The position numbers and the translations under genes were made by a program. The notes under the pieces are model-generated. The model was not told the DNA's origin. It worked only from the letters and a program-made list of their open reading frames with translations, and searched no databases. This document shows, piece after piece, positions 491 through 62,903 of a stretch of 64,000 bases of DNA (position 1 is the stretch's first letter; each line of letters opens with the position of its first letter). Source of the DNA: Methanothermococcus sp. Ax23 (GTDB taxonomy: Archaea > AGJL01 > Methanococci > Methanococcales > Methanococcaceae); contig NZ_CP157522.1 of the NCBI RefSeq assembly GCF_049075655.1, forward strand, positions 864,001 to 928,000, in the 5' to 3' direction.

Positions 491-1438
491 ATGATATTGG
501 ATGTAAATATTGTTATGAGCTCAGCTAAAATAGCCTTACTATATACGATGAAAATATCCATTATTGTGTTAATTTCAATGTTTGTAATGAATTATATAAT
601 AAACACCGGCATAATGAAAAAATTTTCGGAGCTCATGGAACCTATTACAAGACATTTAAATATGAATCCCCTTTCAATATCTTCAATTTTAGTATGTTTT
701 TTTAGCCCCACAGTTGGATATTCTATATTGGCAGAGGGATTAAAGGATAAAAAATTGAATGAAAGGGAAATAATCGGAACTTCTCTTGCAAATTCATTCC
801 CATCTGTCCTGTCTCACACAATTACATTTTTTATACCTGTTGTTATTCCAATACTGGGGTTAACTGGATTATTATTTGTTTTAATTAGATTAGGCGTAGC
901 ATTTGCAAAGAGTATAATTGGGACTATATATTTGAGCATTATTTCAAAAAAAGCAGATTTTGAAGTGCCAGAAATTAATAAAATGGATAAAAAAGAAAAT
1001 TTGGAAAAATCATTAAAAAGCACTTTAAGGTTTTCAAGAAGATTGATTCCAGTTATGCTTATTACTATGTTTTTGGTCATCTATTTGTCTAAAATTGGGG
1101 CTTTTGATTATCTAAATAATTTAGTCAGTCCAATAACAAATATTCTTGGTTTAAATCCAAATGTTGGATTAGTCTCATTAACTGAAATAATGAATGTTCA
1201 GGCAGCTATTGTAATGGCTGGGGGATTTCTAAACGAAAATATTTTAAGTTCAAAGGAGGTTTTGATAGGGCTTATTATTGGAAATGTATTGTCATTTTCA
1301 ACAAGGTATGTTAAGCACTCCTTACCATTACATGTTTCCCTATTTGGAACAAAGCTTGGAACGAAAATTGTAATGATTAATGCTGCAATTACTCTATTAC
1401 TGGATATTATGATAATTGGGGGATTGTTAATACTATAA
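491..1438 (+). CDS. Integral membrane protein, nucleoside-recognition (Gate) domain family
   Basis: 315 aa, many hydrophobic segments, two-repeat Gate-like layout (FFSPTVGY..L, LIIGNVLS). Confidence 0.6.
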   Translation: MILDVNIVMSSAKIALLYTMKISIIVLISMFVMNYIINTGIMKKFSELMEPITRHLNMNPLSISSILVCFFSPTVGYSILAEGLKDKKLNEREIIGTSLANSFPSVLSHTITFFIPVVIPILGLTGLLFVLIRLGVAFAKSIIGTIYLSIISKKADFEVPEINKMDKKENLEKSLKSTLRFSRRLIPVMLITMFLVIYLSKIGAFDYLNNLVSPITNILGLNPNVGLVSLTEIMNVQAAIVMAGGFLNENILSSKEVLIGLIIGNVLSFSTRYVKHSLPLHVSLFGTKLGTKIVMINAAITLLLDIMIIGGLLIL

Positions 1439-1691
1439 TTATGATATAAGTTTATTTTATGGAATATTCTATGTGATAGCATGAAATATTAATATTAAAA
1501 ATAACAAATCGATGCAATCTAAATTGCATTTATTGTTATGCAAATCCATGTCCAACATTGGAGGGATATTTTTATATGGGGAATATAAATAATTCTAATG
1601 GTAAAGAAAAATTAATCTTATTTAAAATTAAATGTGATTATTGTTTTGCAAAAAAGTTTTTTAGGGATAGATACGATATTTTGGTGGAATA

Positions 1692-2453
1692 ATGAAAATT
1701 GGCGTATCCAGTAGTATCTTTTTAGATTCAGATAAAAATTTGCGATATTCGTTGGAATTTTTAGAAAAAAAGGTTAGATATGTTGAGTTAGTTTGTGATG
1801 GTAATATAAATACCATGGGGAAAGAAAATATTGACATTCCCCAGTCCTATGATTTAAATTACACACTGCACTGTCCCTTAACTGATTTAAATCTATCTTC
1901 TTTTAGGGAAAAAATAAGAAATGCCAGTTTAGATTTTGTTAAGGATATTTTGAAAACTGCTGATAGAACTAATGCAAATTTGGCTGTTCTGCATCCTGGT
2001 TATTGTATTTTTAAATATGATTATAAAAAAGCATCAAATGCACTGATAAAATCTTTAAAAGATTTAAATGATATTCAAAATGAATATTCTATAAAAATAA
2101 CCATTGAAAACATGCCGTCGTATAACATGTTTATGTTTAGAGAACCAATAGATGAAATTATGGATAATTTAGGAGATTTGGACATTACTTTTGATATCGG
2201 ACATTCTTTTTTAAATAAAAATATTGATAAGTTTTTAGATGATGAATTAATTGAAAGAATATCGCACATCCATATTCATGATAATAATGGAGAGCTCGAT
2301 GAGCATCTATGTATTGGAAAGGGCAAAATTGATTTTAAGAAGTATGGAGGTAAAATCAAAAAAATAAAGTGCATAAAAATGATTGAAATGCAGAACAAAA
2401 GCCTTGGTGATTTGGATTTGTGCATTGAACGATTAAAAAATTTATTAATTTAA
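1692..2453 (+). CDS. Sugar phosphate isomerase/epimerase (AP endonuclease 2 TIM-barrel family)
   Basis: Motifs LHCP, VLHPG, IENMP, FDIGH, HIHIHDN, DEHL. Confidence 0.8.
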   Translation: MKIGVSSSIFLDSDKNLRYSLEFLEKKVRYVELVCDGNINTMGKENIDIPQSYDLNYTLHCPLTDLNLSSFREKIRNASLDFVKDILKTADRTNANLAVLHPGYCIFKYDYKKASNALIKSLKDLNDIQNEYSIKITIENMPSYNMFMFREPIDEIMDNLGDLDITFDIGHSFLNKNIDKFLDDELIERISHIHIHDNNGELDEHLCIGKGKIDFKKYGGKIKKIKCIKMIEMQNKSLGDLDLCIERLKNLLI

Positions 2454-2817
2454 TATTTATTCCTTCAAATATATTATATCCCATTATTCGAATTTAAATT
2501 AAATTATATATTGAATTAGATAAAGTAAAAAATAATAAATAATGGGGGGCGTATATTTCACCAATATATTATTGAATAATTATTATCGTATGATTAATTA
2601 TAGTTATTGTATGAATATGTATGATTGTATGGTTATCAATTAAATAATTTAACTAAATAATTTATTAGTTATATCCATTATATTTTAATATACAATTACG
2701 TACAATTGCTTCACGAAATTCGCACCTTTTGTAAAAAAATTGGGCGAAAAATGAACCGCAATCGTTATATGTATATGACTGTTTTTATGTTGTTGATAAC
2801 ATATTTCTGGTGATTAA

Positions 2818-5124
2818 ATGATAAGTAGTAAAAAATATAGCAATTTTAAAATAGAAGTCATTAAAAAAGACGGGGCAAGGGAAAATTTCAATGTCAATAA
2901 ACTGGTTAAATCTCTTTTAAATTCTGAGGTGGATTACGAGCATATAGATTCAATTATTAGTGTTGTTTGTGGCAAGATTTATGATAAAATTTCCACAGAT
3001 GAAATAAAGCGTATTGTATGTGAGGTTCTTAAAGAAATAGATAATCAAAAAGGAACGAAATATGCAAAAAACTATCAGTTTAAAAATGTCTTAAAGGTCA
3101 GAACTTCAAAAAATGAATTTCAGCCATTTGATAAAAACAGTATAATAGCCACACTTGTGGATGAAACAGGTTTAGATAAAAAAACTGCTGAAAAAATCAG
3201 TAATGAGATTGAAAAGGAAATAAAAAAATTAAATTTAAAATATCTTACCGCACCAATGATAAGGGAGCTCGTAAATGCAAAACTAATTGAACATGGGTTG
3301 GAGGAGTTCAGACAAAAACACACAAGATTAGGAATCCCTATATATGACATTAAAAAACTCATAAATCAAGGAAGTAGAGAGAATGCAAATTTAATGCACA
3401 ACCCAGAATCAATTCATAAGTGGGTGGCAGACGAAACAATGAAGCAGTATGCCCTATTGGAGGTATTTCCAAAACATATAGCCGATGCACACATGAAGGG
3501 AGACATACATTTGCATGATTTAGAATACGCTGCAATAAGGCCAGTTTGCTGTCAGCATGATTTAAGGAATTTCTTTATGCATGGTTTAAAGGTTGATGGG
3601 ACAGGAAGGCACACAAGTGTTTCAAAGCCTGCAAAACATGCTGAGGTAGCAATACAGCATGCTGCTAAGGTTTTAAGTGCGGCACAATGTGAAATGAGTG
3701 GAGGACAATCCATAGATGAATTTAACATATGGCTTGCTCCATATATGAAAGGATTACCTTATGATAGGATAAAACAGCTTATGCAGATGTTTATTTACGA
3801 AATGAACCAAATGTATGTGGCCAGAGGAGGTCAGACAGTTTTCAGTAGCATAAATTTGGAATTGGAGGTTCCAGAGTTCTTAAAAGATAAACCAGCAGTG
3901 ATTGCAGGAACAACAAGGGGAACTTATGGGGAATATGAAGAAGAGGCTAAGATGATATTGGAGGCATTGGTTGATGTAATGATGGAAGGTGATGCAGTTG
4001 GAAAGCCATTCTTATTCCCAAACTTCATCGTAAAATTAAGGGAGAAAGCGTTTAGCGATGAAAATAAAGAACTGATGATAAAACTCCACAAATTGAGCAG
4101 TAAATGGGGATTGCCATACTTTATAAATATGCTTCCAGACTGGCAGGCAAACAACACAAATGCCATGGGATGTAGAACCAGATTAAGCGGAGATTGGACC
4201 GGAGATACTGAAAACGATACCCTTAGAACTGGAAATATGCAGTGGTATACCCTTAACCTTCCAAGAATTGCCTATGAAGCAGGCGGGGATGACGACAAAT
4301 TGTTTGAGATAATCGATGAAAAATTGGCAATACTTGTTGAAGCTCTAAATATAAAGCACAATACCACCATGAAAATACTTAATGATAGAATAATGCCTTT
4401 CATGACTCAGAAATTTGGCGATGAACAATATTATAGATACGACAGCACCACAAAGACCTTTGGATTTGTCGGATTAAATGAAATGTTAAAATTCCATTTG
4501 GGAGAGGAATTACACACGTCAAAAGATGCGGTGGTATTTGGGGAGAAGGTTATCCAGCATATTAGAAGTTATGCGGATAACTTGAAAAAAGAAACAGGTT
4601 TAAGATGGACAGTAACTCAAACACCAGCTGAGAGCACAGCAGGAAGATTTGCAAGACTGGATTACAAATACTACAAAGATGAAACAAAATCTGTGGTAAA
4701 TGGTGATTTGACAGATGAGCTCACTCTATATTATACAAATTCATCACATGTTAAAGTTAATTCACCAACTACACTTGGTGAAAAAATAAGAATTGAGGAA
4801 AAATTCCACCCGTTGTGTAATGGTGGGCATATAGGACATTTCTGGAATGCTGAGGCTTATGCAGACCCTGAGGTTCTGATGGATATAACAAAGAAAATAG
4901 CAGAAAAATCCAACATTGGATTCTGGACTTACACGAAAAATCTTAGCATCTGTGAAAACTGTGGTAAGGGCATGGCAGGATTAAGGAACAACTGTAATCA
5001 GTGTGGGAGCTCCGATGTTCAAAAGTTCAGCAGAATCACAGGATATTTACAAAATGTTTCAAACTGGAATAGTGCAAAACAGCAGGAATTGATGGATAGG
5101 AAAAGTAATATTCCTAGAATTTAG
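2818..5124 (+). CDS. nrdD: Anaerobic (class III) ribonucleoside-triphosphate reductase with two N-terminal ATP-cone domains, no intein
   Basis: VIKKDG and VRTSK ATP cones, GDIHLHDL, AMGCR, TPAESTAGRF, C-terminal CxxC..CxxC and RITGYL glycyl-radical motif. Confidence 0.95.
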   Translation: MISSKKYSNFKIEVIKKDGARENFNVNKLVKSLLNSEVDYEHIDSIISVVCGKIYDKISTDEIKRIVCEVLKEIDNQKGTKYAKNYQFKNVLKVRTSKNEFQPFDKNSIIATLVDETGLDKKTAEKISNEIEKEIKKLNLKYLTAPMIRELVNAKLIEHGLEEFRQKHTRLGIPIYDIKKLINQGSRENANLMHNPESIHKWVADETMKQYALLEVFPKHIADAHMKGDIHLHDLEYAAIRPVCCQHDLRNFFMHGLKVDGTGRHTSVSKPAKHAEVAIQHAAKVLSAAQCEMSGGQSIDEFNIWLAPYMKGLPYDRIKQLMQMFIYEMNQMYVARGGQTVFSSINLELEVPEFLKDKPAVIAGTTRGTYGEYEEEAKMILEALVDVMMEGDAVGKPFLFPNFIVKLREKAFSDENKELMIKLHKLSSKWGLPYFINMLPDWQANNTNAMGCRTRLSGDWTGDTENDTLRTGNMQWYTLNLPRIAYEAGGDDDKLFEIIDEKLAILVEALNIKHNTTMKILNDRIMPFMTQKFGDEQYYRYDSTTKTFGFVGLNEMLKFHLGEELHTSKDAVVFGEKVIQHIRSYADNLKKETGLRWTVTQTPAESTAGRFARLDYKYYKDETKSVVNGDLTDELTLYYTNSSHVKVNSPTTLGEKIRIEEKFHPLCNGGHIGHFWNAEAYADPEVLMDITKKIAEKSNIGFWTYTKNLSICENCGKGMAGLRNNCNQCGSSDVQKFSRITGYLQNVSNWNSAKQQELMDRKSNIPRI

Positions 5125-5921
5125 GTTCCAAAACGAACGAAGTGAGTTTTGGACTTTTGATGCAACTTTTTTTTAAAAGTTGCGTGGGAAACAGCAGGAA
5201 TTGATGGATAGGAAAAGTAATATTCCTAGAATTTAGGTTCCAAAACGAACGAAGTGAGTTTTGGACTTTTGATGCAACTTTTTTTTAAAAGTTGCGTGGG
5301 AAACAGCAGGAATTGATGGATAGGAAAAGTAATATTCCTAGAATTTAGGTTCCAAAACGAACGAAGTGAGTTTTGGACTTTTGATGCAACTTTTTTTTAA
5401 AAGTTGCGTGGGAAACAGCAGGAATTGATGGATAGGAAAAGTAATATTCCTAGAATTTAGGTTCCAAAACGAACGAAGTGAGTTTTGGACTTTTGATGCA
5501 ACTTTTTTTTAAAAGTTGCGTGGGAAACAGCAGGAATTGATGGATAGGAAAAGTAATATTCCTAGAATTTAGGTTCCAAAACGAACGAAGTGAGTTTTGG
5601 ACTTTTGATGCAACTTTTTTTTAAAAGTTGCGTGGGAAACAGCAGGAATTGATGGATAGGAAAAGTAATATTCCTAGAATTTAGGTTCCAAAACGAACGA
5701 AGTGAGTTTTGGACTTTTGATGCAACTTTTTTTTAAAAGTTGCGTGGGAAACAGCAGGAATTGATGGATAGGAAAAGTAATATTCCTAGAATTTAGGTTC
5801 CAAAACGAACGAAGTGAGTTTTGGACTTTTGATGCAACTTTTTTTTAAAAGTTGCGTGGGAAACAGCAGGAATTGATGGATAGGAAAAGTAATATTCCTA
5901 GAATTTAGGTTCCAAAACGAA
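5077..5921 (+). repeat. Perfect tandem array of a 112-bp unit (7 full copies + 61-bp partial); unit = last 48 bp of nrdD + 64-bp double hairpin
   Basis: AGCAGGAATT recurs at 5081, 5193, 5305, 5417, 5529, 5641, 5753, 5865 (period 112); copies look identical including the T8 tract. Confidence 0.97.
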
Positions 5922-5960
5922 TGAATCGGGACTTAATTTTTTATAATTTTTTTATTTTAC

Positions 5961-6329
5961 GATAAACCGCCGAGAAAGCCAACGATTTTAATCGTTATAC
6001 AAAACATAGTTTTGTAAAATCTCTTATGAGATTGGATTAGAGGCGGACATTATAATTAGTCAGTAGTAAAACATAAATATTTGAAGTTTCATAGTGAATA
6101 ATGCTACCAGTCCAAGTATCTATGGGTAGGGTTAGTAAAAACTCTACCGCTGGTAGTGGTTGGAAGTGCATAGCGTAGCCCTGAACCCATTAATGGGTAG
6201 GGGTAGTGGGCTTGGCCACCCTTGTAGGGTTAAACCCTGCTAAAATTAGACGAAATCACTTCATGATTTCGTTGCTCGCTTACTACCGTAAGCGAGAACC
6301 CCACGACTTCAGTCGTGGGAGTAGGTCAG
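5961..6329 (+). mobile_element. Non-autonomous IS200/IS605 derivative (MITE/PATE-like) of the element at 29023-30541
   Basis: Begins GATAAACCGCCGAGAA after TTTAC; ends CCCACGACTTCAGTCGTGGGAGTAGGTCAG; both ends match 29023-30541 and 46031-46354. Confidence 0.9.
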
Positions 6330-6361
6330 AGATCAAGTTTTTTAACATGTATATTATTGAA

Positions 6362-10072: not shown

Positions 10073-10930
10073 ATGTTGGAATTCCTTAAAAATAAAAGGG
10101 GTGCTATTGGTATTGGGACCTTAATTATATTTATTGCCCTAGTATTAGTTGCAGCAGTTGCAGCAGCGGTAATTATAAACACAGCTGGAAAATTACAACA
10201 CAAAGCATCTACTGTTGGTCAGGAAAGCACTAAACAAGTAGCAAGTGGTATTCAGGTTATCAAAGTTGCAGGATATGCAGATGTTAATTCTACGGATTCT
10301 TTTATAGTTATAAACACAACATCCAATGAGACCATAATAAACAACTCTGCATATCGGAATACAGTGGATAGCTCCCAGTATGGGTATATAAAAGGTATGG
10401 CCATATTTGTAGGGCCAAATATTGGCGATGATATAGATTTAACATCTACAATAATTACCGTGTCAAATGAAGATAAAAAGGTATCATTGGTATACTCCGG
10501 CATTATCAAACATGCTGATACAAATGGTACTGAGGATATATTCAAGGGATTGGTTCTTGAAGGGGCTAACGATTCAGTTAATACCACTGTGGTAAATACC
10601 ACTGAAGGAGAACATGTTAATGGAAGCTATATTGTAATCAGAAATTCAAATGAAATTACCGTAGGAAAGGATGGATGGGTATTAAACAACGTGCCTAAAT
10701 TTGGAATAATCGTTTTACAGGATTCTGATAAATCTACATACGGAGCTCACCCTACGGTTAACTATGGGGATAAAGTTGTACTTACAGTAAATACTGGTGC
10801 CATATTTAATCCTGGCGTGGCTACAAGAGATGTAATATCTGGGGAGGTAATCCCAGAATATGGTGCATCAGGAATAATCGAGTTTAGAACACCATCAGTA
10901 TTTGGTGGTAAAGTAGTAGCTCTTCAATAA
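10073..10930 (+). CDS. flaB3: Archaellin, FlaB3 (hook-like) type
   Basis: KRG|[35 protein letters not shown], typical of Methanococcus FlaB3. Confidence 0.9.
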   Translation: MLEFLKNKRGAIGIGTLIIFIALVLVAAVAAAVIINTAGKLQHKASTVGQESTKQVASGIQVIKVAGYADVNSTDSFIVINTTSNETIINNSAYRNTVDSSQYGYIKGMAIFVGPNIGDDIDLTSTIITVSNEDKKVSLVYSGIIKHADTNGTEDIFKGLVLEGANDSVNTTVVNTTEGEHVNGSYIVIRNSNEITVGKDGWVLNNVPKFGIIVLQDSDKSTYGAHPTVNYGDKVVLTVNTGAIFNPGVATRDVISGEVIPEYGASGIIEFRTPSVFGGKVVALQ

Positions 10931-10941
10931 TGGGTGAAAAA

Positions 10942-11498
10942 ATGCCAAACATATCTGAAATAATTGACGAAATAAAAAAAAAATAGCATTTGGTAAAAAT
11001 AAAGGAGGAGGTAGTGAAGCGGAAGGTCTTGATGATGAATTCATGCTTGATGAAGATGACATGCCTGAATCAGGGGATGAATTAGCTGCTGCAAATGAGG
11101 AACTTCTTGCTAAAATTGGAGAGCTTGAATCAAGATTTCCAAAAATAGAAATGATGATTACAAATCTAAGGAAGGAAAATGAAACTCTAAGAGATAATAT
11201 CAATAAAATAAATGAGAACTTTCAAGACATAATGGCACTCTACGAAGTGGTCTCAAATCAAGTAAATCCATTTATAGGGATTTCAAAAATTACTGCAACC
11301 AGCATGGAAAAAATGGAAAGATTAGAATATGAAGCAAACGCCCTTAGAAAAAAAGTTGATGAGTTACAAAGGGATGTCGTAATTCTTGCGGACATATATC
11401 TAAAACAGCACGATATCGATTTAGATGGTGTCATCAATGATATACTTGCAGAAGAAGAAATCTCCAAAGTAATATCAGGAGAGGATTCAAATGGTTAG
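10942..11498 (+). pseudogene. flaC: Archaellum accessory protein FlaC/ArlC, frameshifted at A10 tract 10974-10983 (or homopolymer sequencing error)
   Basis: GGTGA RBS + ATG 10942 gives MPNISEIIDEIKKK* (TAG 10984); one extra A joins it to IAFGKNKGGGSEAEG... continuous with ORF 11043-11498 (LYEVVSNQVNPF FlaC motif). Confidence 0.85.
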
Positions 11499-12492
11499 TG
11501 AAACAGAATTGTATTCTTCCACAATGGAAGATTATTTAACTGAGGATGAATTGGAGGAATATCTAGAGAATTTAAAAACTAAAATTCCTTCATTTATTGT
11601 TGAGCTGTTAAAAAATAATTTGAAAAACAGAAAATTAACAAAAAACCAATTAGATAGGATAGTGAATAGGGTCACTGACCTTTATTTGGGTAAAAAACCA
11701 GAGGATAAAAAAGCAGAAGAATTAACCGCTAAAATCAATGATTTGAGTAATAAATTGGATGCACTGATGAAAGTTGCGGCAATATCTTCCGCAACAAAGG
11801 TATCTGAGGATATTAAAAGAGAATTATCTAGTTTAGAAGAAGATGAAAAGGTGGAGTCGGATAAACCGGAAGGTTTAGTAGAAATCAATGAAAATGCAGA
11901 CAATGCAGACATAATGGAAGAAGAAAAGGAAGAAAGCGAAGTAATTACAGAAGAGTTGGATGTGGAAGAACACAAACCTGAAGAATTGAAAACCCTGGAG
12001 AAGAAAATCGAGAAAAAAGAGGAAGAACCTATTGTGGATGAAATAGAAACTGAAAATTCAAAAAATGTTCCGATTATTGAAGAGGAGGTCATTGATATGC
12101 CAACCGATTTAACAGGAGTGCATGATAAAAAGTATAATCTTGAAGAATTACCTGAGGATACCCTATCCACTATGTTAGTCTTTAAATGGCTTGAATTTTT
12201 AATAAGTAGAGTTGGATTGAGTAATTTAATTGATATTTTAGATTATTATTATAATTTGGGGTGGATATCTGAAAAGGTAGTTAATAGATTGATAAAAATA
12301 TCAAAAAATATGAAATATCTCAATGAAGAATTCAGGAAGCCCATGGATAAGATGATATCAGAGGACCATATAGTTTCCTTACTTTATATTGAAAAATTAG
12401 CAGGTAGGCCAATACCTGTGGATGAATTAGAAAGTATGGATAGGGAAATAAACAGAATAAGGAAATGGGCAGAAGAATTGCAAAGTATATAA
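11491..12492 (+). CDS. flaD: Archaellum accessory protein FlaD/ArlD
   Basis: C-terminal FKWLEFL..ILDYYYNLGWIS..DHIVSLLYIE domain; operon position. Confidence 0.9.
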   Translation: MVSETELYSSTMEDYLTEDELEEYLENLKTKIPSFIVELLKNNLKNRKLTKNQLDRIVNRVTDLYLGKKPEDKKAEELTAKINDLSNKLDALMKVAAISSATKVSEDIKRELSSLEEDEKVESDKPEGLVEINENADNADIMEEEKEESEVITEELDVEEHKPEELKTLEKKIEKKEEEPIVDEIETENSKNVPIIEEEVIDMPTDLTGVHDKKYNLEELPEDTLSTMLVFKWLEFLISRVGLSNLIDILDYYYNLGWISEKVVNRLIKISKNMKYLNEEFRKPMDKMISEDHIVSLLYIEKLAGRPIPVDELESMDREINRIRKWAEELQSI

Positions 12493-12522
12493 ATTATTAA
12501 GACATTGCAAGGAGGGATTATT

Positions 12523-12927
12523 ATGGATACATCAACATTATCTTCAATACTGTTTGAAGCACATAAACCAGCCAAATTGGAAAAAATTCCAGAAGATCCA
12601 ATGTCAATAATATTCACTTTCAAATGGTTGGAATATTTGTCAGAAAGAGTAGGTTATTCAAATATTGCTAATACATTGGAATTCTATTATAATTTAGGCT
12701 GGTTATCTGATAAGGCAGTATTGGATTTATTAAAATACCTGAAAGGAATCAAACCAGGAGCAGAAATAGACGAACCTTCTGGCAATCTTACAATTGCTGA
12801 CCACCTGGTTTCATTATTATTTATAGAAAGATTAAATGGTAAAAAAATTTCCAGTGAAGTGCTTGATAGGATAGAATGGGAAATAAGGAGAATAAAAAAG
12901 GGGGTTGAACAATACTATGGGGTTTAG
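12523..12927 (+). CDS. flaE: Archaellum accessory protein FlaE/ArlE
   Basis: FKWLEYL..LEFYYNLGWLS..DHLVSLLFIE; GGAGG RBS before ATG 12523. Confidence 0.9.
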   Translation: MDTSTLSSILFEAHKPAKLEKIPEDPMSIIFTFKWLEYLSERVGYSNIANTLEFYYNLGWLSDKAVLDLLKYLKGIKPGAEIDEPSGNLTIADHLVSLLFIERLNGKKISSEVLDRIEWEIRRIKKGVEQYYGV

Positions 12928-13324
12928 TTCAACTGCTGGTTTGATAATTATATTATCAACAGTATTGGTTTGTTCTATATACATATATAGTTCAGTGGAT
13001 TTAAATACTGTTAAGATAAATAACGCATATTCTGAGTATATAAATCATTTAAACAATAAAGCAAATGAAAAATTGACAATAGTATCTGCTGTAAATTCAA
13101 GCGATACCATAAATATAACACTTTTAAATAATGGCTCATTGACTCATGAACCCCATAAATGGACAGTAATGTATAATGGCACACCAAAAAACTTTGAAGT
13201 TAATCCGGATGTGACGTATTTAACTCCACTGAATAATATCACAATTATTATAAATGCCACTGCTCCAGCAAGAATATGTGTGGTTTCGGAGTATGGGAAT
13301 AAGTATTATTGTAATTTAAATTAG
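12917..13324 (+). CDS. flaF: Archaellum accessory protein FlaF/ArlF
   Basis: MGFSS N-terminus, single TM, NNGS, VVSEYGNKY; operon position. Confidence 0.85.
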   Translation: MGFSSTAGLIIILSTVLVCSIYIYSSVDLNTVKINNAYSEYINHLNNKANEKLTIVSAVNSSDTINITLLNNGSLTHEPHKWTVMYNGTPKNFEVNPDVTYLTPLNNITIIINATAPARICVVSEYGNKYYCNLN

Positions 13325-13406
13325 GTTACTACAAAATTATAAATTATAATAAGAATACTTTTAACCTTTTTATGTTTGTTATTGTTGATTATTATTAGGT
13401 GATTTA

Positions 13407-13859
13407 ATGGCATCCAATGTGTTCTCAGAAATAATTATATTCGTCAGCGTTTTAATAATTGCTGCTGCTGTTTCTGGGATTCTAGCAACCACTACTCATA
13501 AACTATCTCTTGGGATGAATAATAAGGGAGATATACTTTCGTCAAAACTATCTCAGGATTTCGAAATAATTAATGACCCTGGAGATGTCCCAAGGAATCA
13601 GTCAACAGGCATTATTTCCATATATATAAAAAATACTGGAAAAACGCCAATAACATTCAATAAGGGAGTTTTAACAGTTCTCATTGATGGAGAAGTTAAA
13701 TCTATAAATTCCACGGCGATAGTGGATAGTACATCAGAGGTATTAAATCCATCAATGGTTGGTAAAATTGATGTTAATTATAACACAACAGGATACCATA
13801 GAATAAAAGTGGTTTCTGAAAATGGAGTAGCTAGGACATTGAAGGTAGAGATTCAATGA
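13407..13859 (+). CDS. flaG: Archaellum accessory protein FlaG/ArlG
   Basis: MASNVFSEIIIFV..., DFEIINDP, YIKNTG. Confidence 0.9.
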   Translation: MASNVFSEIIIFVSVLIIAAAVSGILATTTHKLSLGMNNKGDILSSKLSQDFEIINDPGDVPRNQSTGIISIYIKNTGKTPITFNKGVLTVLIDGEVKSINSTAIVDSTSEVLNPSMVGKIDVNYNTTGYHRIKVVSENGVARTLKVEIQ

Positions 13860-13880
13860 CGGCATATATCTGGTGATTTT

Positions 13881-14573
13881 ATGAAGCTTGCAAGAATCGA
13901 ACTTAGTAGGGATGATATTCATAAAAGGTTGGGTGGGGGCATCCCATACGGGAGTATAATCCTTATTGAGGGGGAAGAATCTACTGGAAAATCAATAATT
14001 GCTCAAAGATTAGCTTATGGTTTTTTACAAAACGCTCACTCTGTTACGTATATTTCAACACAATTAACAACATTGGAGTTTGTAAAGCAAATGATGTCAT
14101 TAAATTACAATATAAATAAAAAACTTTTGAGCGGAGTTTTACTGTACATTCCAGTATATCCATTAATATCTGATAATCTTCAAAAGGAAGATTTTATAAA
14201 AAAACTTATGGAAACAAGGACATTTTATGAAAAAGATGTTGTAATATATGACACCATATCATCCCTTATAGTAAATGATGCAAGCGATATTAAGGTGAAT
14301 GATTTAATAGCTTTTTTTAAAAGAATAGCAGCTATGAATAAGATTGTAATTTACACCATAAATCCAAAAGAACTACCTGAATCTGTTTTAACATTATTTA
14401 GAACAGCTGCTACAATGGTATTCAAAACTGAAATTTACACATTTGGAGGGAGTGTTAAAAACCTTGTAAGAGTTGAAAAATACAATTTAGCAAGGGGCCC
14501 ATATCAAAAAACCATGGTATTCAGAGTGGAACCTAATTTAGGTATTGCAGTAGAGATATCATCCGTAGCATAA
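13881..14573 (+). CDS. flaH: Archaellum KaiC-like ATPase FlaH/ArlH
   Basis: LGGGIP, Walker A GEESTGKS, FRVEP..G. Confidence 0.95.
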   Translation: MKLARIELSRDDIHKRLGGGIPYGSIILIEGEESTGKSIIAQRLAYGFLQNAHSVTYISTQLTTLEFVKQMMSLNYNINKKLLSGVLLYIPVYPLISDNLQKEDFIKKLMETRTFYEKDVVIYDTISSLIVNDASDIKVNDLIAFFKRIAAMNKIVIYTINPKELPESVLTLFRTAATMVFKTEIYTFGGSVKNLVRVEKYNLARGPYQKTMVFRVEPNLGIAVEISSVA

Positions 14574-14636
14574 AACGTATGATTGTATGGCTATATAACA
14601 ACAGTAATTTAGTATTATAAATATAAGGTGATAGAA

Positions 14637-16271
14637 ATGGCAGATGAGTTTAAAACCAGTATGGAAAGAAATCCTCATTTGCGTAAGTATGTGGATAACT
14701 TCAAAAAAACCTATTTAAAAATGCCTGAGTTCATGGTGAGCTTATCGAGGGATTTAAAAGAACTTAAATATCCAAATATTCTTTATCCGATTGGTGATCC
14801 ATTATTTATTCATATATTTGGAACCCATGATGTTAAGACAAAGTATATAGTTATAGAGCCGAGGTTGGAAACCCTAGATGAAAAATTAACTTATAAAATG
14901 ATAATGGATAAACTTTTAGAATATGCTCCTTATGCGGATTCTCCTGAAAGTGATGAAGAATTTGGAAAAATACTAACCGACTTATTTAACAAAACAACCA
15001 AGGTCGTCGAGAGTAAAAAAAAGGGCAAAAAATTCTTTAATTTTCTAAATGCTGGAAAAATTGAAATTACAAAACCTGAAAGGGATAAATACTTATATTT
15101 ATTAAAAAGAGATTTGATAGGATTGGGCGTGCTTGAACCTATTAAACGAGACCCTTATATCGAGGATATACACGTAATAGGCTCAAATGGCTGTCAGCTT
15201 GTTCATAAGATATTCGACATGCTCCCTACAAATATTAGGTGGGAAAATGACATCGAACTTTCAAACTATTTAAAAAATATGTGTGAAAGGATAGGACGAC
15301 CAGTTTCTGATGCAAACCCTGTTGTTGATGGTTCCCTTCCAGACGGTTCGAGGATAAATATTATTTATTCAACAGACGTTTCATTGAAAGGTCCTTCATT
15401 CACTATTAGGAAATTTACAGACGTTCCAATAAGTATTACTCAAATTATCAGCTGGGGGACAATGTCTGCTCAAACTGCGGCATATTTATGGCTTTGCTTG
15501 GAATATGGTATGAGTATCTTTATTTGTGGGGAGACTGCATCAGGTAAAACCACAACATTAAATGCCATATTACCATTTATTAAACCAAAATCGAAGGTAT
15601 TTTCTTGTGAGGATACTGCCGAGGTTAAACCACCTCAGCCAGTATGGCAACAGCTGCTGACAAGAGAAAGAGGGCCTGAAGAAAGTAGAGTTACACTGTT
15701 CGATTTATTGAGGGCTGCACTGAGGTCTAGACCTAACTATATTATTGTTGGGGAGATAAGGAGTGTTGAAGGTGCAGTGGCATTCCAAGCAATGCAGACA
15801 GGACACCCGGTATTATCAACATTCCACGCTGCAAATGTTAGGAAAATGATTCAAAGATTGAATGGGGACCCAATTAATATTCCACTAACATTCATGGACA
15901 ACCTCCATGTGGCATTATTTCAGCTCGCAGTATACAGTAGAGGTAAGTTTTTAAGAAGAGTCGTAAGTATTGAAGAAATTGAAGGTTATTATAAAGAAGT
16001 AGATGGAGTAATAACAAGAGGGGTATTTGAATGGGACCCTCAAAATGATAAACACAACTTTACAGGACTTAACAACAGTTATATTCTTGAAGATAAAATT
16101 GCAAAGGTAGCTGGCTACGATGACCCAAGGGAGATATATGATGAATTAAATTTACGGACCAGAATACTTGAAGAAATGATAGCAAGAGGCATGTTTGGAT
16201 ATTATGAGGTTTTAGATGTAATATGGAATTTTTATGAAAAAGGATTGGAGGGGCTCCCATTCCCTATCTGA
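14637..16271 (+). CDS. flaI: Archaellum motor ATPase FlaI/ArlI
   Basis: GETASGKTT, RSRPNYIIVGEIR, MQTGH..STFHA. Confidence 0.95.
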   Translation: MADEFKTSMERNPHLRKYVDNFKKTYLKMPEFMVSLSRDLKELKYPNILYPIGDPLFIHIFGTHDVKTKYIVIEPRLETLDEKLTYKMIMDKLLEYAPYADSPESDEEFGKILTDLFNKTTKVVESKKKGKKFFNFLNAGKIEITKPERDKYLYLLKRDLIGLGVLEPIKRDPYIEDIHVIGSNGCQLVHKIFDMLPTNIRWENDIELSNYLKNMCERIGRPVSDANPVVDGSLPDGSRINIIYSTDVSLKGPSFTIRKFTDVPISITQIISWGTMSAQTAAYLWLCLEYGMSIFICGETASGKTTTLNAILPFIKPKSKVFSCEDTAEVKPPQPVWQQLLTRERGPEESRVTLFDLLRAALRSRPNYIIVGEIRSVEGAVAFQAMQTGHPVLSTFHAANVRKMIQRLNGDPINIPLTFMDNLHVALFQLAVYSRGKFLRRVVSIEEIEGYYKEVDGVITRGVFEWDPQNDKHNFTGLNNSYILEDKIAKVAGYDDPREIYDELNLRTRILEEMIARGMFGYYEVLDVIWNFYEKGLEGLPFPI

Positions 16272-16289
16272 GGTAATTGAGGTGATTTT

Positions 16290-17969
16290 ATGTTCCTAGA
16301 TATTCTATCCCGTGTGGGATTAAAGCCTAGAGATTATTTATTAAAATATGTCCTGCCTTCAATTATTCTCTCCATCATTTTAGTAGCCGTGGGAATAACT
16401 TATTTTTCAGGATACATACGATTGTTAGTATTGCTTATTCCAGTATTAATTTTGGGCAGTGCCATAGGTTATCCCTATATAGAATTAGATAACCAAAAAA
16501 ACCAGATAAACGAAAAACTCCACATATTTATAACAAAATTCGGTGTCTTATCAATAACTGATTTAGACAGAAAGGAGCTCATGAAAATTCTTGCTAATGA
16601 AAAGGAAGAGCTCGGACAATTAGCCAATGAATCGAAAAAAATATATGTATTAATAAAAAGATGGAATCAATCACTTGCTGAAGCTTGCAGATTCTTAGCA
16701 CATAGAACTCCAAGTAGTGAGTTTTCAGATTTTTTAGATAGGATGGCATATTCAATAGATAGTGGTGAAGAGCTCAAAGATTTCTTAGCAAAGGAGCAGT
16801 CCATAGTTATGAATGATTATGCTGCATTTTATAAGAGGTCATTATATTCATTGGACATGTTTAAAGAAATGTATATTAGTGCAATTACATCTCTTGCATT
16901 TTTTGTAACTTTTGCAGTTATCGCTCCGTTCATAGCACCTTATAATTTTGTGACTACGGTCACTATGGCATTGTTGGGATTTATTATAGCAGAGGTATGT
17001 TTGGTGTATATTATTAAAAGTAAAATGCCCGCAGATAGATTATGGCATACTGGTGAGAAGCCAACTCCTGTGGATTTAAAACTTAGGAAGTATTTGATAA
17101 TCTCAATAATTTTAACCATAATAACTCTGGGCGTTCTTATTTGGGGGAAATATTTTGCAGGAATTCCAAAAATAGCTGCAATTCCATATCAGATAATATT
17201 TGCTGCTGGATTTACACCACTTCTAATCGGCGGATATATCGCTAAAAGAGAGGAGAGTTTGGTTATAAGAAAAGAATATAACTTTCCAGATTTTTTAAGG
17301 TCACTGGGTGATTCAGTCAGTGCAAAAGGCGGAGGTATGGAGGATTCTTTAAAGTATTTGTCATCACATGATTTTGGTCCATTGACAAAGGATTTAGAAC
17401 GACTTTATAAAAGGATATCTATAAGAATCGATAACAATAAAGCATGGAGACTTTTTGGTTTTGAAACATGTAGTTATTTGATACAGTTGTTTTCCGAAAT
17501 GTTTGAAAGATGTACATTTTTGGGGGGAGACCCTGGAAAAGCTTCTGAAATCATAGGAAATAATTTTCGTAAAATAATTAATTTAAGAAAATCAAAATAT
17601 CAAAGTGTTGAACAATTTACTGCTATAATGTATGGATTGGGAGGAGGTCTTGCTCTTGCATTATATACCTCTTATGGAGTAGCACATATGGTAAATAGCT
17701 TATATACTTCTCTTGAAATCCCTGAGGCGATGATTAGCGTTATAAATATTATGGCACCCGGTGATTTATCGATAATATCCTATCTAATGTATGCTTGTCT
17801 GGCAATATATGCTTTAATTTCAGGATATATGATAAAAATAATGGATGGCGGACACCCACAAGTTATGTTGATGCATTTTACAATAATACTCTGGATAGTT
17901 TCTATTGTGTCATATGTCACTGAGCTCATAATAAATAAAGTATTGGGTGTAGGTATCCCATTGTTCTAA
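16290..17969 (+). CDS. flaJ: Archaellum membrane platform protein FlaJ/ArlJ
   Basis: Multi-TM T2SS-F-like protein following flaI. Confidence 0.92.
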   Translation: MFLDILSRVGLKPRDYLLKYVLPSIILSIILVAVGITYFSGYIRLLVLLIPVLILGSAIGYPYIELDNQKNQINEKLHIFITKFGVLSITDLDRKELMKILANEKEELGQLANESKKIYVLIKRWNQSLAEACRFLAHRTPSSEFSDFLDRMAYSIDSGEELKDFLAKEQSIVMNDYAAFYKRSLYSLDMFKEMYISAITSLAFFVTFAVIAPFIAPYNFVTTVTMALLGFIIAEVCLVYIIKSKMPADRLWHTGEKPTPVDLKLRKYLIISIILTIITLGVLIWGKYFAGIPKIAAIPYQIIFAAGFTPLLIGGYIAKREESLVIRKEYNFPDFLRSLGDSVSAKGGGMEDSLKYLSSHDFGPLTKDLERLYKRISIRIDNNKAWRLFGFETCSYLIQLFSEMFERCTFLGGDPGKASEIIGNNFRKIINLRKSKYQSVEQFTAIMYGLGGGLALALYTSYGVAHMVNSLYTSLEIPEAMISVINIMAPGDLSIISYLMYACLAIYALISGYMIKIMDGGHPQVMLMHFTIILWIVSIVSYVTELIINKVLGVGIPLF

Positions 17970-46000: not shown

Positions 46001-46030
46001 GATTGGAATAAATGCCTATAATATAAAAAA

Positions 46031-46354
46031 CTGACCTACTCCCACGACTAAAGTCGTGGGGTTCTTTAGTAGGGTTTAACCCTACACGGGTGGCCAAGCC
46101 CACTACCCCTATCCCCGTTTAGGAGATTCAGGGCTACCTTTTGAACATCCAACCACTACCAGCGGTAGAGTTTTCACTAACCCTACCCATAGATACTTGT
46201 ACTGGTAGCGTTACTTACTATTAATCGTCTCATATTTATATTTTACTACTTACTAGCCGATATAATGTCCGCCTCTCATCCAATCTCGTAAGAGATTTTA
46301 CAAAACTATGTTTTGTATAACGATTAAAATCGTTGGCTTTCTCGGCGGTTTATC
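46031..46354 (-). mobile_element. Second non-autonomous IS200/IS605 derivative (MITE/PATE-like), inserted 3' of TTTAC
   Basis: Collinear with 5961-6329 in reverse orientation; lacks the 51-bp right-end insert. Confidence 0.9.
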
Positions 46355-46369
46355 GTAAATATATTGATA

Positions 46370-49227: not shown

Positions 49228-50660
49228 GTGAACTACCCCTCCTTACGAGAGGGGCTTCCTGCATCATCCATCTCCCAACGGAGCATGTCAGATCTCAAAA
49301 TTTCCTTACGGAAATTTATACGATTTAACAAATCAAAGATTTGTTAAACAGGCTCACCCCCGTGTTCCACAGGTGCATAATAGTATTACAACCCAATCAG
49401 ATTCTGTTTATTTAAAGCAAACTTTTTAATATTAACCGCCGCATTAACATCCCTATCATGCTCAGTATTGCAGACAGGACACTTCCAAACTCTATTCTTT
49501 AAGTCCAAATTACCATTATAATACCCACAAACAGAGCATATTTTACTGGAAGGTTCAAACCTACCTATTTTTATTATGGTCTTTCCAAACTTCTCAGCTT
49601 TATACATTAGTTTAGATACAAAAGAAGACCATGCTACATCAAGAATTGATTGGGCTAAATTGTGATTCTTAACCATTCCTTTAACATTCAAATCTTCCAA
49701 CGCTATGGCTTGGTTTTCCGTGCAAATCAAAGATTTGCAGGACACAAAAATCTTCGATTTTTGCTGTCGCCAATTAATTTAAAAGAGAGTTTGTGTTGGA
49801 AGTCGTTCCTTTGATTAACAATTTTTTCATGAAGTTTAGCAAGTTTTAGTCTTGCTTTCTCTCGGTTTTTAGAACCTTTTTGTTTTCTTGAAAGTCTTTT
49901 TTGTAATACTTTTAACCTCTGCAAACTCTTTTTGAGATGCTTTGGATTATCTATTTTCTCACCGTTTGATAATATGCAAAAGTGAGTAATACCTAAATCG
50001 ATACCTATTGTGGTTTTTTCATCAAATGGTTGCTTGTTTGGAATTGGTTTTCCATCCTCTACCATAATACTTATGAAGTATTTACCTGTTGGAGTTTTTG
50101 AGATAGTTACTGTTCTCATTTCTCCTTCGAATTTCCTGTGGAGTTTAGCTTTAACCCATCCTATTTTGGGTAGAAATACTTTGTTATTCTCCCAGTCCAC
50201 TTTATAATGTTGCGGAATTTGGAAGGATTGTCTTGGATGTTTTTTAGTTTTGAACTTTGGGAACGATGCTTTTTTTCTGAAAAAGTTGGTAAATGCCCTC
50301 TCCAAGTTCAGAGTTGCCCCCTGTAATGATTGGGAGTTTATTTCTTTTAACCATGGGAATTCTTTTTTTAGTGTTTTGATTGTTTTATTTAATTGGAATC
50401 GTGATATTGCCTTTCCTGTTTGTTCATAAGTTTGGATTTTGAGGTTTAATGCCCAGTTATAGATGAATCTACATGCTCCAATGTGCTTGTGGATTAGTGT
50501 TCTTTGTCCTTTATTGGGGTATAATCTGAACTTGTAAGCTGTTAGCATTTTACCACGATATATTATTTATGCTAAGTTATTTTTATGCCATAGTATTTAT
50601 ATTTTTTTGGTCGGCTATCATCTCCACCCTAACGGATGGAGTCTTCTCGCCGACATTTAG
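49228..50660 (-). mobile_element. Second IS200/IS605-family tnpB-only element, inserted 3' of TTTAT, just downstream of tRNA-Arg
   Basis: Left-end hairpins GTCGGC..CTCCATCC-GTTA-GGGTGGAG..GCCGAC; right-end hairpin CCCCTC..GAGGGG ending GTTCAC; tnpB inside. Confidence 0.85.
49386..50548 (-). pseudogene. tnpB: TnpB interrupted by a 50-bp insertion (49717-49766); 370 aa with D-E-D triad if the insert is removed
   Basis: AYKFRLYP, GIDLG, then LIG|ENQAIALEDL after removing the insert, CSVCG..CPVC, HDRDVNAA. Confidence 0.92.
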
Positions 50661-59786: not shown

Positions 59787-59901
59787 ATTTTCACTTTGAT
59801 ATTTTTTATCAATATTTAAAATCAATCTTTAAAATATATAAATATCATATAATAAGAATGATAATAATCGAATAATAAAGGATAACAATGATAATAAAAT
59901 C

Positions 59902-60948
59902 GAGGTTGTCGAAAAATATTAAATTATCAATAACATATAATACATGTTATGAAGGGGAATATAAAAAAGAAAATAGAAAAGAAAAAGACCAATCCTAAGA
60001 CAAAAGGATACTGGAGAATATACGACCTTAGATATAAGAAATACGACCTAAGAACTACTTATACGTTGATTTTATCCATTACAAACATGCTGAATCGTCC
60101 TTCTACCGAAGGACGAAAGGTTGGTAGGGTATCTGCCCTACCCTATAATGAATATGTGGTAGTTCTAATATTAAAACATATCTACAAACTAAGTTTAAGG
60201 GATTTAGAGACACTCTCAAATACATTACATAACAAACATATTGACCATTCCACATACGGTAAAGCATTTAAACGGATGGATAATGAGTTTCTATCCAATT
60301 TACTCACTTTTACATATACGATTATAGATAATCTACTAACTCAGCCCTCCAACAAACTATATATGGCAGACTCAACAGGAGTTTCCATAAATAGGTTATA
60401 CTATGAGTGCATTCACGGAGGGAAACGTACTAAACGATTGGTGCATGATAAATTGCATGTTCTAGCATCATACTATCCAGAACAAGGATATATTCCAATA
60501 ATCTCCGCCCGTTGGGGCGGAGGTTATAGTTCCGATAGTGCCAACCTATTGGAAATGGTTAAACAGATTGATTTTTTAGATAATGAATATCTACTGGCTG
60601 ATGGAGGATATGATTGCTGTGAATTGTTTGAATATTTACTACAACACAATATCACTCCAATAGTTAAAACAAAAGAATTCAAGTGGAAGTATCATATTAG
60701 CAAAGTTAGAAAAACCATTAAGAGCATGTTTAACAAGGATTGGTATCGCCTTCGGGGGATAGTAGAATCCATATTTGGAGGGCTGGAGACTAAAAACAGG
60801 TTAAAATTAGATGACAGGTTGGCGGATAGCAGAGATGTAAAAGCACTATTGCTACTGCGATAGTGCATAACGTATTAACACTAATGAGAGTATTAGTATT
60901 AACATATGATACTGAATAAAATTACAAATTCAATTATTCGACAACCTC
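59902..60948 (+). mobile_element. IS5-like insertion sequence, 1047 bp, 16-bp TIRs, 9-bp TSD AATAAAATC
   Basis: GAGGTTGTCGAAAAAT at 59902 / ATTATTCGACAACCTC ending 60948; AATAAAATC at 59893-59901 and 60949-60957. Confidence 0.92.
59949..60863 (+). CDS. DDE transposase (IS5-like), probably frameshifted near the C-terminus
   Basis: ADSTG, KLH, LADGGYD, YRLRGIVESIF; an alternate frame continues ATAIVHNVL... to TAA at 60919. Confidence 0.85.
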   Translation: MKGNIKKKIEKKKTNPKTKGYWRIYDLRYKKYDLRTTYTLILSITNMLNRPSTEGRKVGRVSALPYNEYVVVLILKHIYKLSLRDLETLSNTLHNKHIDHSTYGKAFKRMDNEFLSNLLTFTYTIIDNLLTQPSNKLYMADSTGVSINRLYYECIHGGKRTKRLVHDKLHVLASYYPEQGYIPIISARWGGGYSSDSANLLEMVKQIDFLDNEYLLADGGYDCCELFEYLLQHNITPIVKTKEFKWKYHISKVRKTIKSMFNKDWYRLRGIVESIFGGLETKNRLKLDDRLADSRDVKALLLLR

Positions 60949-61126
60949 AATAAAATCGAAACCTATATATACTAAATTATAGTTTATATTGATAGTAAGT
61001 ATTAAACACGAAAGATTGATAGTAATAATATGCTGGATAAACACGAAATATATTGTTGATATTTCTAAATATATATCTAAAAGTATATATATGAGTAGTT
61101 ATTATAACTGATTTAACAATTTGTTT

Positions 61127-61768: not shown

Positions 61769-61950
61769 ACGATAATTTAACGACTGTTTATAAAACAAAA
61801 CAGGATGAGAAATAATTATCTACTATGAATAAATGAAACTTCCGGCAATAAAAACCTTCGGATTTTTCATTTAGCGTTTAACCATATAAAAAAGAAAGGT
61901 TATAAAAATTGGAGATTAAAAATCTTTAAAACCAAATAAAAGGTGAAAAA

Positions 61951-62487
61951 ATGGGTGACCCAAGAAAATTAAGTAAAAAATACGATACCCCAAATCATCC
62001 ATGGATTGGAGAAAGAATTAAAAGAGAAAGAGAATTAGCAATAAAATATGGGTTGGTAAATAAGAAAGAATTTTGGAAAATGGAAACAAGATTGAGAACA
62101 TTCAGAAGACAGGCAAGAAAATTGATAAGCGACACAACCAAACAAGGTGCAAGAGAAGCTGTTCAGTTATTTGGCGTTTTGAAAAGATACGGTATTTTAG
62201 TTAAGGAAGATGCTACATTGGATGATGTTCTCTCATTAAATGTTGAAAGTATCCTCGACAGAAGATTACAAACATTGGTATTTAAAAAAGGACTTGCAAA
62301 AACACCAAAACAAGCTAGACAATTTATAGTTCATGGCCATATTGCAGTAAATGGAAGAAGAATAACTGCACCAAGTTATTTGGTTCCAGTGGCTGAGGAA
62401 GATTTAATATCATACACACCAACATCACCATTGGCTTCTGAAAATCATCCTGAAAGAACAAAAGTGGTAAGTGAGGATAATAGCTAA
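61951..62487 (+). CDS. rps4: 30S ribosomal protein S4
   Basis: [29 protein letters not shown]. Confidence 0.96.
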
Positions 62488-62528
62488 TTTAATTAAAAAA
62501 TCAATAAAAATAAAAATAAGGTGATTTA

Positions 62529-62903
62529 ATGAGTGAGAAATGGGGCGTAATCCATATTTATGCGTCATACAACAACACAATTATACATGTTACAGATATT
62601 ACAGGAGCAGAAACAATTGCAAAAATTTCTGGTGGTATGATTGTAAAAAACCAGAAAGATGAGTCATCCCCTTATGCTGCGATGCAGGGTGCATTTAAAA
62701 TAGCAGACATGATAAGAGAAAAAGGAATAGAAAAAGTTCATGTAAAGGTAAGAGCTCCGGGTGGAAACAAATCAAAGAACCCAGGTCCAGGAGCTCAGGC
62801 AGCCATTAGGGCATTGGCAAGAGCAGGGATTAGGATTGGAAGAATAGAAGATGCAACACCAATTCCACATGATGGGACAACCCCAAAGAAAAGAAACAGA
62901 TAA
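62529..62903 (+). CDS. rps11: 30S ribosomal protein S11
   Basis: [32 protein letters not shown]. Confidence 0.96.

Follow-up and report, generated by a model that had tools for sequence, protein, structure and literature searches.

GAGCTC, a HIP1-like iterated palindrome in archaeal genomes

The hexamer GAGCTC is a highly iterated palindrome of the kind known from cyanobacteria as HIP1 (highly iterated palindrome 1), and it is found here in archaea. The DNA in which it was noticed is a 64,000-nucleotide stretch of the Methanothermococcus sp. Ax23 genome (NCBI RefSeq assembly GCF_049075655.1, contig NZ_CP157522.1, positions 864,001 to 928,000), which is called the window below. It holds exactly 78 copies of GAGCTC; 100 dinucleotide-preserving shuffles of the window gave a mean of 4.40 (standard deviation 1.90, maximum 8), and none of the 100 reached 78. 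The initial annotation of this DNA, made from its letters, had put the number of sites at about 78 by eye and the GC content at about 30%. The count was right, as were all 16 of the coordinates that it quoted, and the GC content is 32.1%. A DNA-level, position-independent and lineage-specific force protects and creates GAGCTC in the resident DNA of these organisms.

The genome to which the window belongs (G000; 1.67 Mb in two contigs, the chromosome C1, with a GC content of 31.9%, and C2) contains 2089 copies of the word in total, against 125 expected under a zero-order model and 106, 160 and 429 under Markov models of orders 1, 2 and 3. This is an enrichment of 16.75-fold over the zero-order expectation and of 13-fold over that of Markov-2, at about 1250 sites per Mb or about one per 800 bases, so that the excess is not confined to the window, an outcome for which the initial annotation had allowed. 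GAGCTC ranks first among the 4096 hexamers of G000 and the ranks that follow are filled by words overlapping it; the next palindrome, CCATGG, is only 2.6-fold over-represented. Its inner tetramer AGCT is at 1.03 of expectation overall, with 41% of all copies sitting within GAGCTC; of the remaining NAGCTN words (0.32-1.28) most are depleted. Contig C2, which is plasmid-like (7732 bp, GC 27%), carries four sites, about 10 times the number expected from its composition, and three of these lie outside open reading frames (ORFs) of at least 100 amino acids.

For the analysis of coding sequence, genes were taken as long ORFs starting at the most upstream start codon, which gave 1514 coding sequences covering 85% of the chromosome. 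By this gene set the sites of the window are divided between frames 0, 1 and 2 as 40, 28 and 9, with one non-coding, and the 2085 chromosomal sites as 1093, 615 and 220, with 157 non-coding; the occurrence of sites in all three frames, described at the outset, is therefore general. When synonymous codons were shuffled within each gene, with the protein and the codon usage of the gene kept, 50 runs gave 186±11 genic sites (maximum 216) against the 1928 observed. The excess is 8- to 13-fold per frame in each of the three frames, which bears out the earlier opinion that simple codon bias is an unlikely cause. Unique non-coding DNA (198 kb, GC 22.7%) has 150 sites where 4.9 are expected, an enrichment of about 31-fold. 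Glu-Leu is written GAG-CTC in 28% of cases (1093 of 3903, with 66 expected), and 39% of all CTC codons in G000 are preceded by GAG.

It could be argued that the word merely follows from codon, dipeptide or repeat content and carries no signal at the level of DNA, given that more sites fall in frame 0 (Glu-Leu) than in any other and that the dipeptides Glu-Leu, Ser-Ser and Gly-Ala are at 1.2 times expectation in motif-rich genomes. We give this explanation practically no chance. A 10-fold genic excess remains after the synonymous shuffle, non-coding DNA is enriched as well, and GAGCTC is not within any longer repeat. Moreover, the Glu-Leu excess is also present in a pooled sample of motif-poor loci (1.21), the value for the relative G005 being 0.99; G005, at about 73% identity in aligned stretches, has none of 40 orthologous sites and 14 sites genome-wide. 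A dispersed repeat or miniature inverted-repeat transposable element (MITE) carrying the word was also considered and rejected, since the flanks of the 2085 chromosomal sites comprise 1810 distinct 14-mers, the commonest of which occurs 10 times, with no more than 0.24 bits at any flanking position. The hexamer alone is the whole unit, and it has no palindromic extension.

Repeated DNA is where the word is missing. In a comparison of G000 with itself, 136 kb of repeated DNA has 0.33 sites per kb where unique DNA has 1.34, and the 69.9 kb present in at least three copies (tnpB, DDE and MITE-like elements) has a single site, where host density would give 94 and chance about 7. The six repeated segments of the window, 6371 bp in all, have none against 8.5 at host density (P=0.0002), in agreement with the first impression that sites are missing from the tnpB elements, MITEs and insertion sequences (ISs) of this stretch. 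Mobile DNA is simply unenriched in GAGCTC rather than purged of it. As to recently acquired DNA, non-core sequence is just slightly poorer, with 1.07 sites per kb against 1.52 in core DNA, a comparison that is confounded by the partial coverage of the relatives used for it, as 1.2 Mb of G012 (72%) and 0.75 Mb of G003 (54%) were mapped onto G000.

The survey of relatives covered 41 Methanococcales-level genomes, 23 of which were used as a family set, with 12 congeners of G000. GAGCTC is hyper-abundant in five of the 41, namely G000 (2089), G012 (2070), G010 (1645) and G003 (1321), which are of one genus, and G013 (1515), which is of a sister genus. Few copies occur in G005 (14), G008 (9), G002 (16) and G007 (4), and most other genomes are near background. 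The signal had been attributed to "this archaeal lineage"; that the trait is lineage-specific is correct, but its extent is narrower than the phrase implies and some congeners avoid the word. Scarcity of the kind seen in G005, G008, G002 and G007 commonly points to a cognate restriction system, and with four congeners avoiding it, proteins that recognise GAGCTC evidently circulate in the genus. In a tree of NrdD the nine motif-poor congeners form a supported clade (100/99), with the four motif-rich congeners outside it, and G013 clusters with the motif-poor genus g3. The nrdD gene of the four motif-rich congeners has one site in common, and there is no GAGCTC anywhere in nrdD of G013 and the five motif-poor genomes listed. 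Only one of 26 named loci is motif-rich (a Methanothermococcus metagenome-assembled genome), and none of the 13 loci outside Methanococci.

Comparison of close relatives shows how the word is kept. In G012, 77.7% of 1285 G000 sites are intact, against 44% for other hexamers, and 51 of the 76 window sites alignable to G012 are identical there. In the closer relative G003 only 64.4% of 884 are intact, other hexamers being at 57%. Losses were polarised by parsimony in 382.6 kb of sequence aligned three ways between G000, G003 and G012. The rooting ((G000,G003),G012) follows from distances of 0.097, 0.138 and 0.141 and from quartets with three outgroups (224 vs 70/99; 169 vs 46/72; 161 vs 53/68), and the branches to G000 (0.047) and G003 (0.050) are nearly equal in length. 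Within this alignment 316 sites are present in all three genomes, 136 are absent only from G003, 58 only from G012 and 32 only from G000; single-genome sites number 90 in G012, 70 in G000 and 19 in G003. The G000 lineage has therefore lost 32 of 348 sites (9.2%), which is at the 0.7th percentile of hexamers and 2.7 times slower than the 25.2% lost by words of the same composition. Together with gains at the 99th percentile of hexamers, this is the outcome of the polarisation of substitutions in orthologues that had been proposed at the start, and it shows the word to be maintained.

The G003 lineage, in contrast to that of G000, has lost 136 of 452 sites (30.1%), against 27.3% for words of the same composition, and so at a rate close to neutral. 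These losses affect all six positions and 128 of the 190 substitutions are C>T or G>A, and they are thus plain decay under AT-biased mutation and not a purge. The sister lineage G003 has switched maintenance off. Lost sites were not compensated within 30 bp in either lineage (0 of 32 in G000 and 0 of 136 in G003). A weak and uniform fixation bias, which slows loss and speeds gain, holds the copy number about 10- to 17-fold above expectation, and such a bias requires a factor present in some lineages and lacking or lost in others. The strength of the force can be measured: loss is slowed about 3-fold, and lineage-specific sites are about 3.7-fold more numerous. Taken together, a loss ratio of 0.31 and the ratio of lineage-specific sites of 70:19 would amount to a bias of about 12-fold, in line with the enrichment. 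The scaled coefficient per site would then be about 2.5, comparable to values for codon bias or biased gene conversion.

Over greater distances the positions of the sites turn over. In 33-38 kb compared for each genome, G010 shares 10 of 52 sites (background 21%), G013 shares 8 of 46 (19.5%) and G005 none of 40. This deep turnover fits a force that acts on the word and not on places. Independent origins of the trait in G010 and G013 are not claimed here, as unshared positions would equally fit an old trait with turnover.

Along the chromosome the sites are a uniform Poisson process. The coefficient of variation of their spacing is 1.09, with dispersion indices of 1.03 (1 kb) and 1.04 (10 kb); among genes of at least 600 bp, 251 are free of sites and 251 are expected to be (chi2/df 0.96), and gaps of more than 4 kb number 16 in G000 against a Poisson expectation of 13.8. 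This bears on the view that GAGCTC is an architectural site, bound by a nucleoid or chromatin protein and selected in its density for chromosome organisation, which is how Xu and co-workers read HIP1. Its even density (full 50-kb bins carry 49-78 sites), the retention of sites above control in close relatives, and the spacing of close pairs, which in both G000 and G012 are mildly deficient below 18 bp and mildly in excess from 18 to 48 bp, are in keeping with such a function. However, no periodicity was found between 5 and 200 kb (p=0.25), and with placement exactly Poisson and lost sites not replaced nearby, neither spacing nor position matters; in G003 the sites decay with no sign of compensation. 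An architectural role is ranked fourth among the explanations considered and appears very unlikely.

The analogy with HIP1 drawn in the initial annotation is apt, for GAGCTC too is genome-wide, lineage-specific, maintained, codon-independent and missing from mobile elements. HIP1, GCGATCGC, is in 15- to 300-fold excess at 300-2700 copies per Mb (PMC5861425, PMC4390886), and the literature on it deals with conservation, periodicity and cognate methyltransferases (PMC5861425, PMC4390886, PMC13756078, bioRxiv 10.1101/2024.09.10.611283). Like GAGCTC, HIP1 and the alternate HIPs are short, GC-rich, hyper-abundant palindromes that occur in all frames and between genes; HIP1 and GAGCTC are both conserved above control words between related genomes and patchy in distribution, with relatives that lack the word. 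GAGCTC differs in being archaeal rather than cyanobacterial, in being a 6-mer and not an 8-mer, and in that no cognate methyltransferase was found to track it. Whereas HIP1 is reported to be periodic at 10-90 kb (Xu et al. 2018), GAGCTC has no periodicity in the range given above, and it is not conserved in position at about 75% identity.

Most work on hyper-abundant palindromes concerns cyanobacteria; there HIP1 remained unexplained for decades and has only lately been tied to transformation. A full-text literature search, which did not extend to supplementary tables, returned no report in Archaea of a comparable hyper-abundant word or of GAGCTC abundance, and the available parts of an archaeal restriction-modification survey (PMC10609329) and of a review (PMC11033074) make no mention of GAGCTC. 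A single genus in which one word is hyper-abundant, neutral, avoided or freshly decaying is unreported in the portion of the HIP1 literature covered, and its contrasting congeners are matched genomes in which the factor could be sought by phylogenetic profiling. The use of GAG-CTC for more than a quarter of Glu-Leu pairs also matters for codon models, for the detection of horizontal transfer and for DNA design in these methanogens.

As to the factor itself, the explanation that we place first, tentatively and with somewhat less than an even chance of being right, is a reader protein in DNA exchange or recombination. A sequence-specific DNA-processing protein would read GAGCTC and would favour DNA bearing it in exchange or recombination between cells, much as with an uptake sequence or a Chi site, and alleles bearing the word would then be fixed slightly more often. 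The specificity of this reader may be akin to that of the restriction activity against GAGCTC to which the avoiding sister lineages point. The link with exchange is inferred from the one site in mobile DNA where 94 would be expected, from HIP1, which raises natural transformation of cyanobacteria in a methylation-dependent manner (bioRxiv 10.1101/2024.09.10.611283, PMC13756078), and from natural transformation within this family, which proceeds through type IV-like pili and archaeal-specific genes (PMC10133366). The DNA uptake sequences (DUS) of Neisseria and the uptake signal sequences (USS) of Pasteurellaceae resemble GAGCTC in occurring at about one per kb of resident DNA, in lying within genes in every frame and in being rare in mobile DNA, and both they and GAGCTC are explicable by a weak drive on every site.

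A more elaborate version, which we regard as unlikely, makes GAGCTC a tag of self DNA. A lineage-specific reader would favour DNA with the word in uptake, in protection from degradation or in recombination, the word would spread by molecular drive, and the specificity module of the reader would be shared with a SacI-type restriction system that circulates within the genus. The sharing of such a module would explain why one word is hyper-abundant, neutral or avoided in sister lineages. If this were so, G003 would be a lineage just after the loss of its reader, the 30-year-old HIP problem would become genetically tractable, and GAGCTC would be the first uptake-like or Chi-like signal known in Archaea.

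Several points weigh against a reader in DNA exchange. The uptake sequences known are 9-12 nt long and are not palindromic. No reader protein was found in a search that covered chosen gene families and one candidate protein. Clean one-step gains of the word are few, with four from 132 one-off ancestors in G000 and none from 139 in G003. In copies of IS elements, 63 one-off neighbours of the word should have yielded 0.7-1.9 gains at the neutral or the host rate and one was seen; the copies are young (median identity to the closest 97%) and the expected gains few, which means that bias within the cell and bias between cells are not separable there. The lack of deep positional conservation in G010 and G013 excludes selection on particular sites. 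The search for periodicity found none, the maximum of the periodogram being reached by 25% of bin shuffles in a test that is simpler than that of Xu et al. Finally, ComEC (PF03772) is present in none of the 23 family genomes and DprA (PF02481) in one, a motif-poor genome, with controls positive in 10 of 14 and 11 of 14; in this respect the GAGCTC genomes are unlike the hosts of DUS and USS, and the archaeal uptake machinery differs (PMC10133366).

The same bias might instead arise within the cell, by biased repair or gene conversion in which a sequence-specific nuclease or glycosylase, for instance a domesticated restriction-type enzyme, would restore GAGCTC from near-cognate or mismatched sequence throughout the resident DNA. 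This is ranked second and is, in our judgement, doubtful. It would leave the same signature of slow loss, raised gain, Poisson placement, sites outside genes as well as in all frames, and enrichment of the plasmid. The one-off neighbours of the word are depleted overall, the 18 counts summing to 1951 against 3117 at zero order, and the four avoiding congeners are a sign that proteins of the required specificity are at hand in the genus. On the other hand, no single neighbour is specifically depleted, and the products of deamination, GAGTTC and GAACTC, have 230 and 240 copies, with ratios to expectation of 0.86 and 0.90 (zero-order) or 1.00 and 1.06 (Markov-3). The IS copies, with their one gain where 0.7-1.9 were expected, offered too few opportunities. 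C5 methyltransferase (PF00145) is unmatched in G000 and does not pass the cut-off in any of the 12 congeners, Vsr (PF03852) is in none of the five genomes searched (G000, G012, G010, G013 and G005; controls positive in 3 of 14), MutS is in none of the 23 family genomes, and among these NucS passes the cut-off in the motif-poor G017 only.

We know of no very-short-patch (VSP) effect of this size, and the GAGCTC effect is about an order of magnitude above that of VSP repair. The Dcm/Vsr system of E. coli (CCWGG) is akin in that a repair bias at a short palindrome shifts the frequencies of a word and its neighbours, but with no m5C enzyme, no Vsr in the genomes named and the deamination product undepleted, methylation-coupled repair of the Dcm/Vsr type, one of the possibilities raised in the initial annotation, is not upheld by any of the tests applied to it.

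A third explanation, and quite an unlikely one, is a function linked to methylation, in which an orphan methyltransferase would act on GAGCTC or on the inner AGCT and the sites would be kept for replication, for the choice of strand in repair or for regulation. HIP1 and alternate HIPs co-occur with cognate methyltransferases (PMC4390886), persistent orphan m4C methyltransferases of AGCT are described from other archaeal orders (PMC10609329), and G000 has several N4/N6 and gamma-class methyltransferases, whose specificity is unreadable from sequence. No methyltransferase family, however, is common to the motif-rich genomes and missing from the poor ones, as the distributions of PF01555 (N4/N6), PF02086 (D12) and PF02384 (gamma-class) do not follow the trait across the relatives. 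G012 is without a clear PF01555 enzyme. The sole clear DNA methyltransferase of G010 is a PF01555 enzyme of 453 amino acids; there is a look-alike among the matches listed in G003 (441 amino acids) and none listed for G000 or G012. D12 enzymes occur within the genus in G012 and G003 only. A methyltransferase and a mismatch enzyme tracking the enrichment, as the initial annotation had envisaged, were accordingly not found among four methyltransferase families, Vsr, MutS and NucS. That AGCT as a whole is at expectation and most other NAGCTN words are depleted also speaks against such a function. The methylome of one species of the family by single-molecule real-time (SMRT) sequencing comprises CTAG, GTNAC, GCACY, CGAG and ACGT; GAGCTC is not among these motifs in the available part of the report (PMC10113651), which concerns a strain that may or may not have the enrichment.

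Other genes were examined as sources of the factor. Eight genes are kept in G012 and deleted in G003 with both flanks present, and when read by eye none of the eight resembled a DNA-modification or repair enzyme; genes broken in G003 were also screened for, with a result too noisy for use, since blastn gaps were unreliable. One candidate, a protein of 351 amino acids (C1:652192-653247) with a winged-helix-like C-terminus and no Pfam family, was found in G012, G010 and G013 and not in G005 or G004, and so fitted the trait in the first five genomes. It is present in 11 of the 20 family genomes searched; it was found neither in G003 nor, with the exception of G008, in any of the nine motif-poor Methanothermococcus genomes. 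As a driver of the trait it was rejected, because it occurs in motif-poor genomes: besides G008, in G014, G016, G019, G020 and G021 of genus g3 and in G015 and G017 of genus g4. Its gene adjoins that of a helix-turn-helix, cysteine-rich protein of 173 amino acids, both within C1:652192-654290. Elsewhere on the chromosome, an insertion relative to G003 and to the mapped part of G012 (C1:1199290-1204508) contains a PF01555 methyltransferase of 700 amino acids and a neighbour of 959 amino acids, an arrangement resembling that of a Type III restriction-modification system.

Restriction-site avoidance, as by SacI isoschizomers, involves the same word in the four avoiding congeners (4-16 sites per genome), and G000 avoids other palindromes; the behaviour of GAGCTC in G000 is of the opposite sign, an enrichment. 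The family RE_SacI (PF09566) has no match in any of the 41 genomes or in the 14 controls, and thus says nothing either way. Many palindromes of G000 are far below the Markov-4 expectation: CTGCAG (18 vs 361), GTGCAC (7 vs 135), GTTAAC (22 vs 309), CTTAAG (20 vs 193), GTATAC (23 vs 225), CTATAG (29 vs 211), CTCGAG (8 vs 51) and GTCGAC (4 vs 39), and words containing GATC are very scarce. From this avoidance it would seem that several Type II restriction systems have been at work over a long period.

The features of the window that are referred to in this study are listed in Table 1. Across the genome, the MITE-like repeats (about 330-420 bp) have a copy number of about 24-28 and the tnpB elements (about 1.5 kb) one of about 10, whereas several families of DDE insertion sequences have 5-8 copies each.

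Table 1. Positions in the window of GAGCTC sites, of repeated elements that are free of them and of related features
Feature	Position	Strand or gene	Remarks
Span with the 78 GAGCTC sites	517..62796		1.35 per kb unique DNA
nrdD site, codon-anchored position 447	3265..3270	gene 2818-5124	common to G000, G003, G012 and G010
Repeated element, about 7 copies, 0 sites	5077-5925 (part of 5077..6336)		self-comparison
MITE-like repeat, about 24 copies, 0 sites	5944-6336 (part of 5077..6336)		self-comparison
Motif-free 5.8 kb, host archaellum genes (flaC, flaD/E, flaF/G-like, flaH, flaI)	10749..16574	+	gap size compatible with chance
Close site pair, 33 bp apart (16575, 16608)	16575..16613		within flaJ-like gene 16290-17969
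tnpB-type element, about 10 copies, 0 sites	29019..30599	-	Cas12f1-like TNB domain in ORF 29109-29543
MITE-like repeat, about 27 copies, 0 sites	46027..46365		self-comparison
IS605 OrfB/tnpB element, 2 copies, 0 sites	49342..50634	-	ORF 49727-50548
DDE-transposase IS element, about 6 copies, 0 sites	59898..60971	+	ORF 59949-60863

The motif-free stretch of the window was considered as mobile DNA and as an exception to the general placement of sites, and both were rejected, since it is the archaellum operon of the host and its length is no more than a Poisson process would allow. The longest stretch of the genome free of GAGCTC, of 11.1 kb (C1:113848-124946), does exceed what a Poisson process allows; it has nine ORFs of 229-730 amino acids, does not align to the mapped part of G012, and could be a cluster of genes acquired recently. 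Similar islands lie at C1:1343828-1349497 and C1:809168-816163. Within genes of at least 600 bp, the first tenth has 113 sites and the other tenths have 161-197, a deficit that may come from the most-upstream placement of ORF starts or may be a real constraint at the 5' end.

Loci labelled Methanothermococcus, though of one named genus, are widely split by GC content around one gene (L254-L256 vs L252, L253, L258 and L261), in classes of 41-44% and 27-31%. In G003 (contig C61) and G010 (C1:1071033-1074686) nrdD is interrupted near residue 343 by an insertion some 450 codons long (loci L165, L166, L168 and L169), which gives reading frames of 1224 and 1225 amino acids and is not present in G000 or G012; it is most likely an intein.

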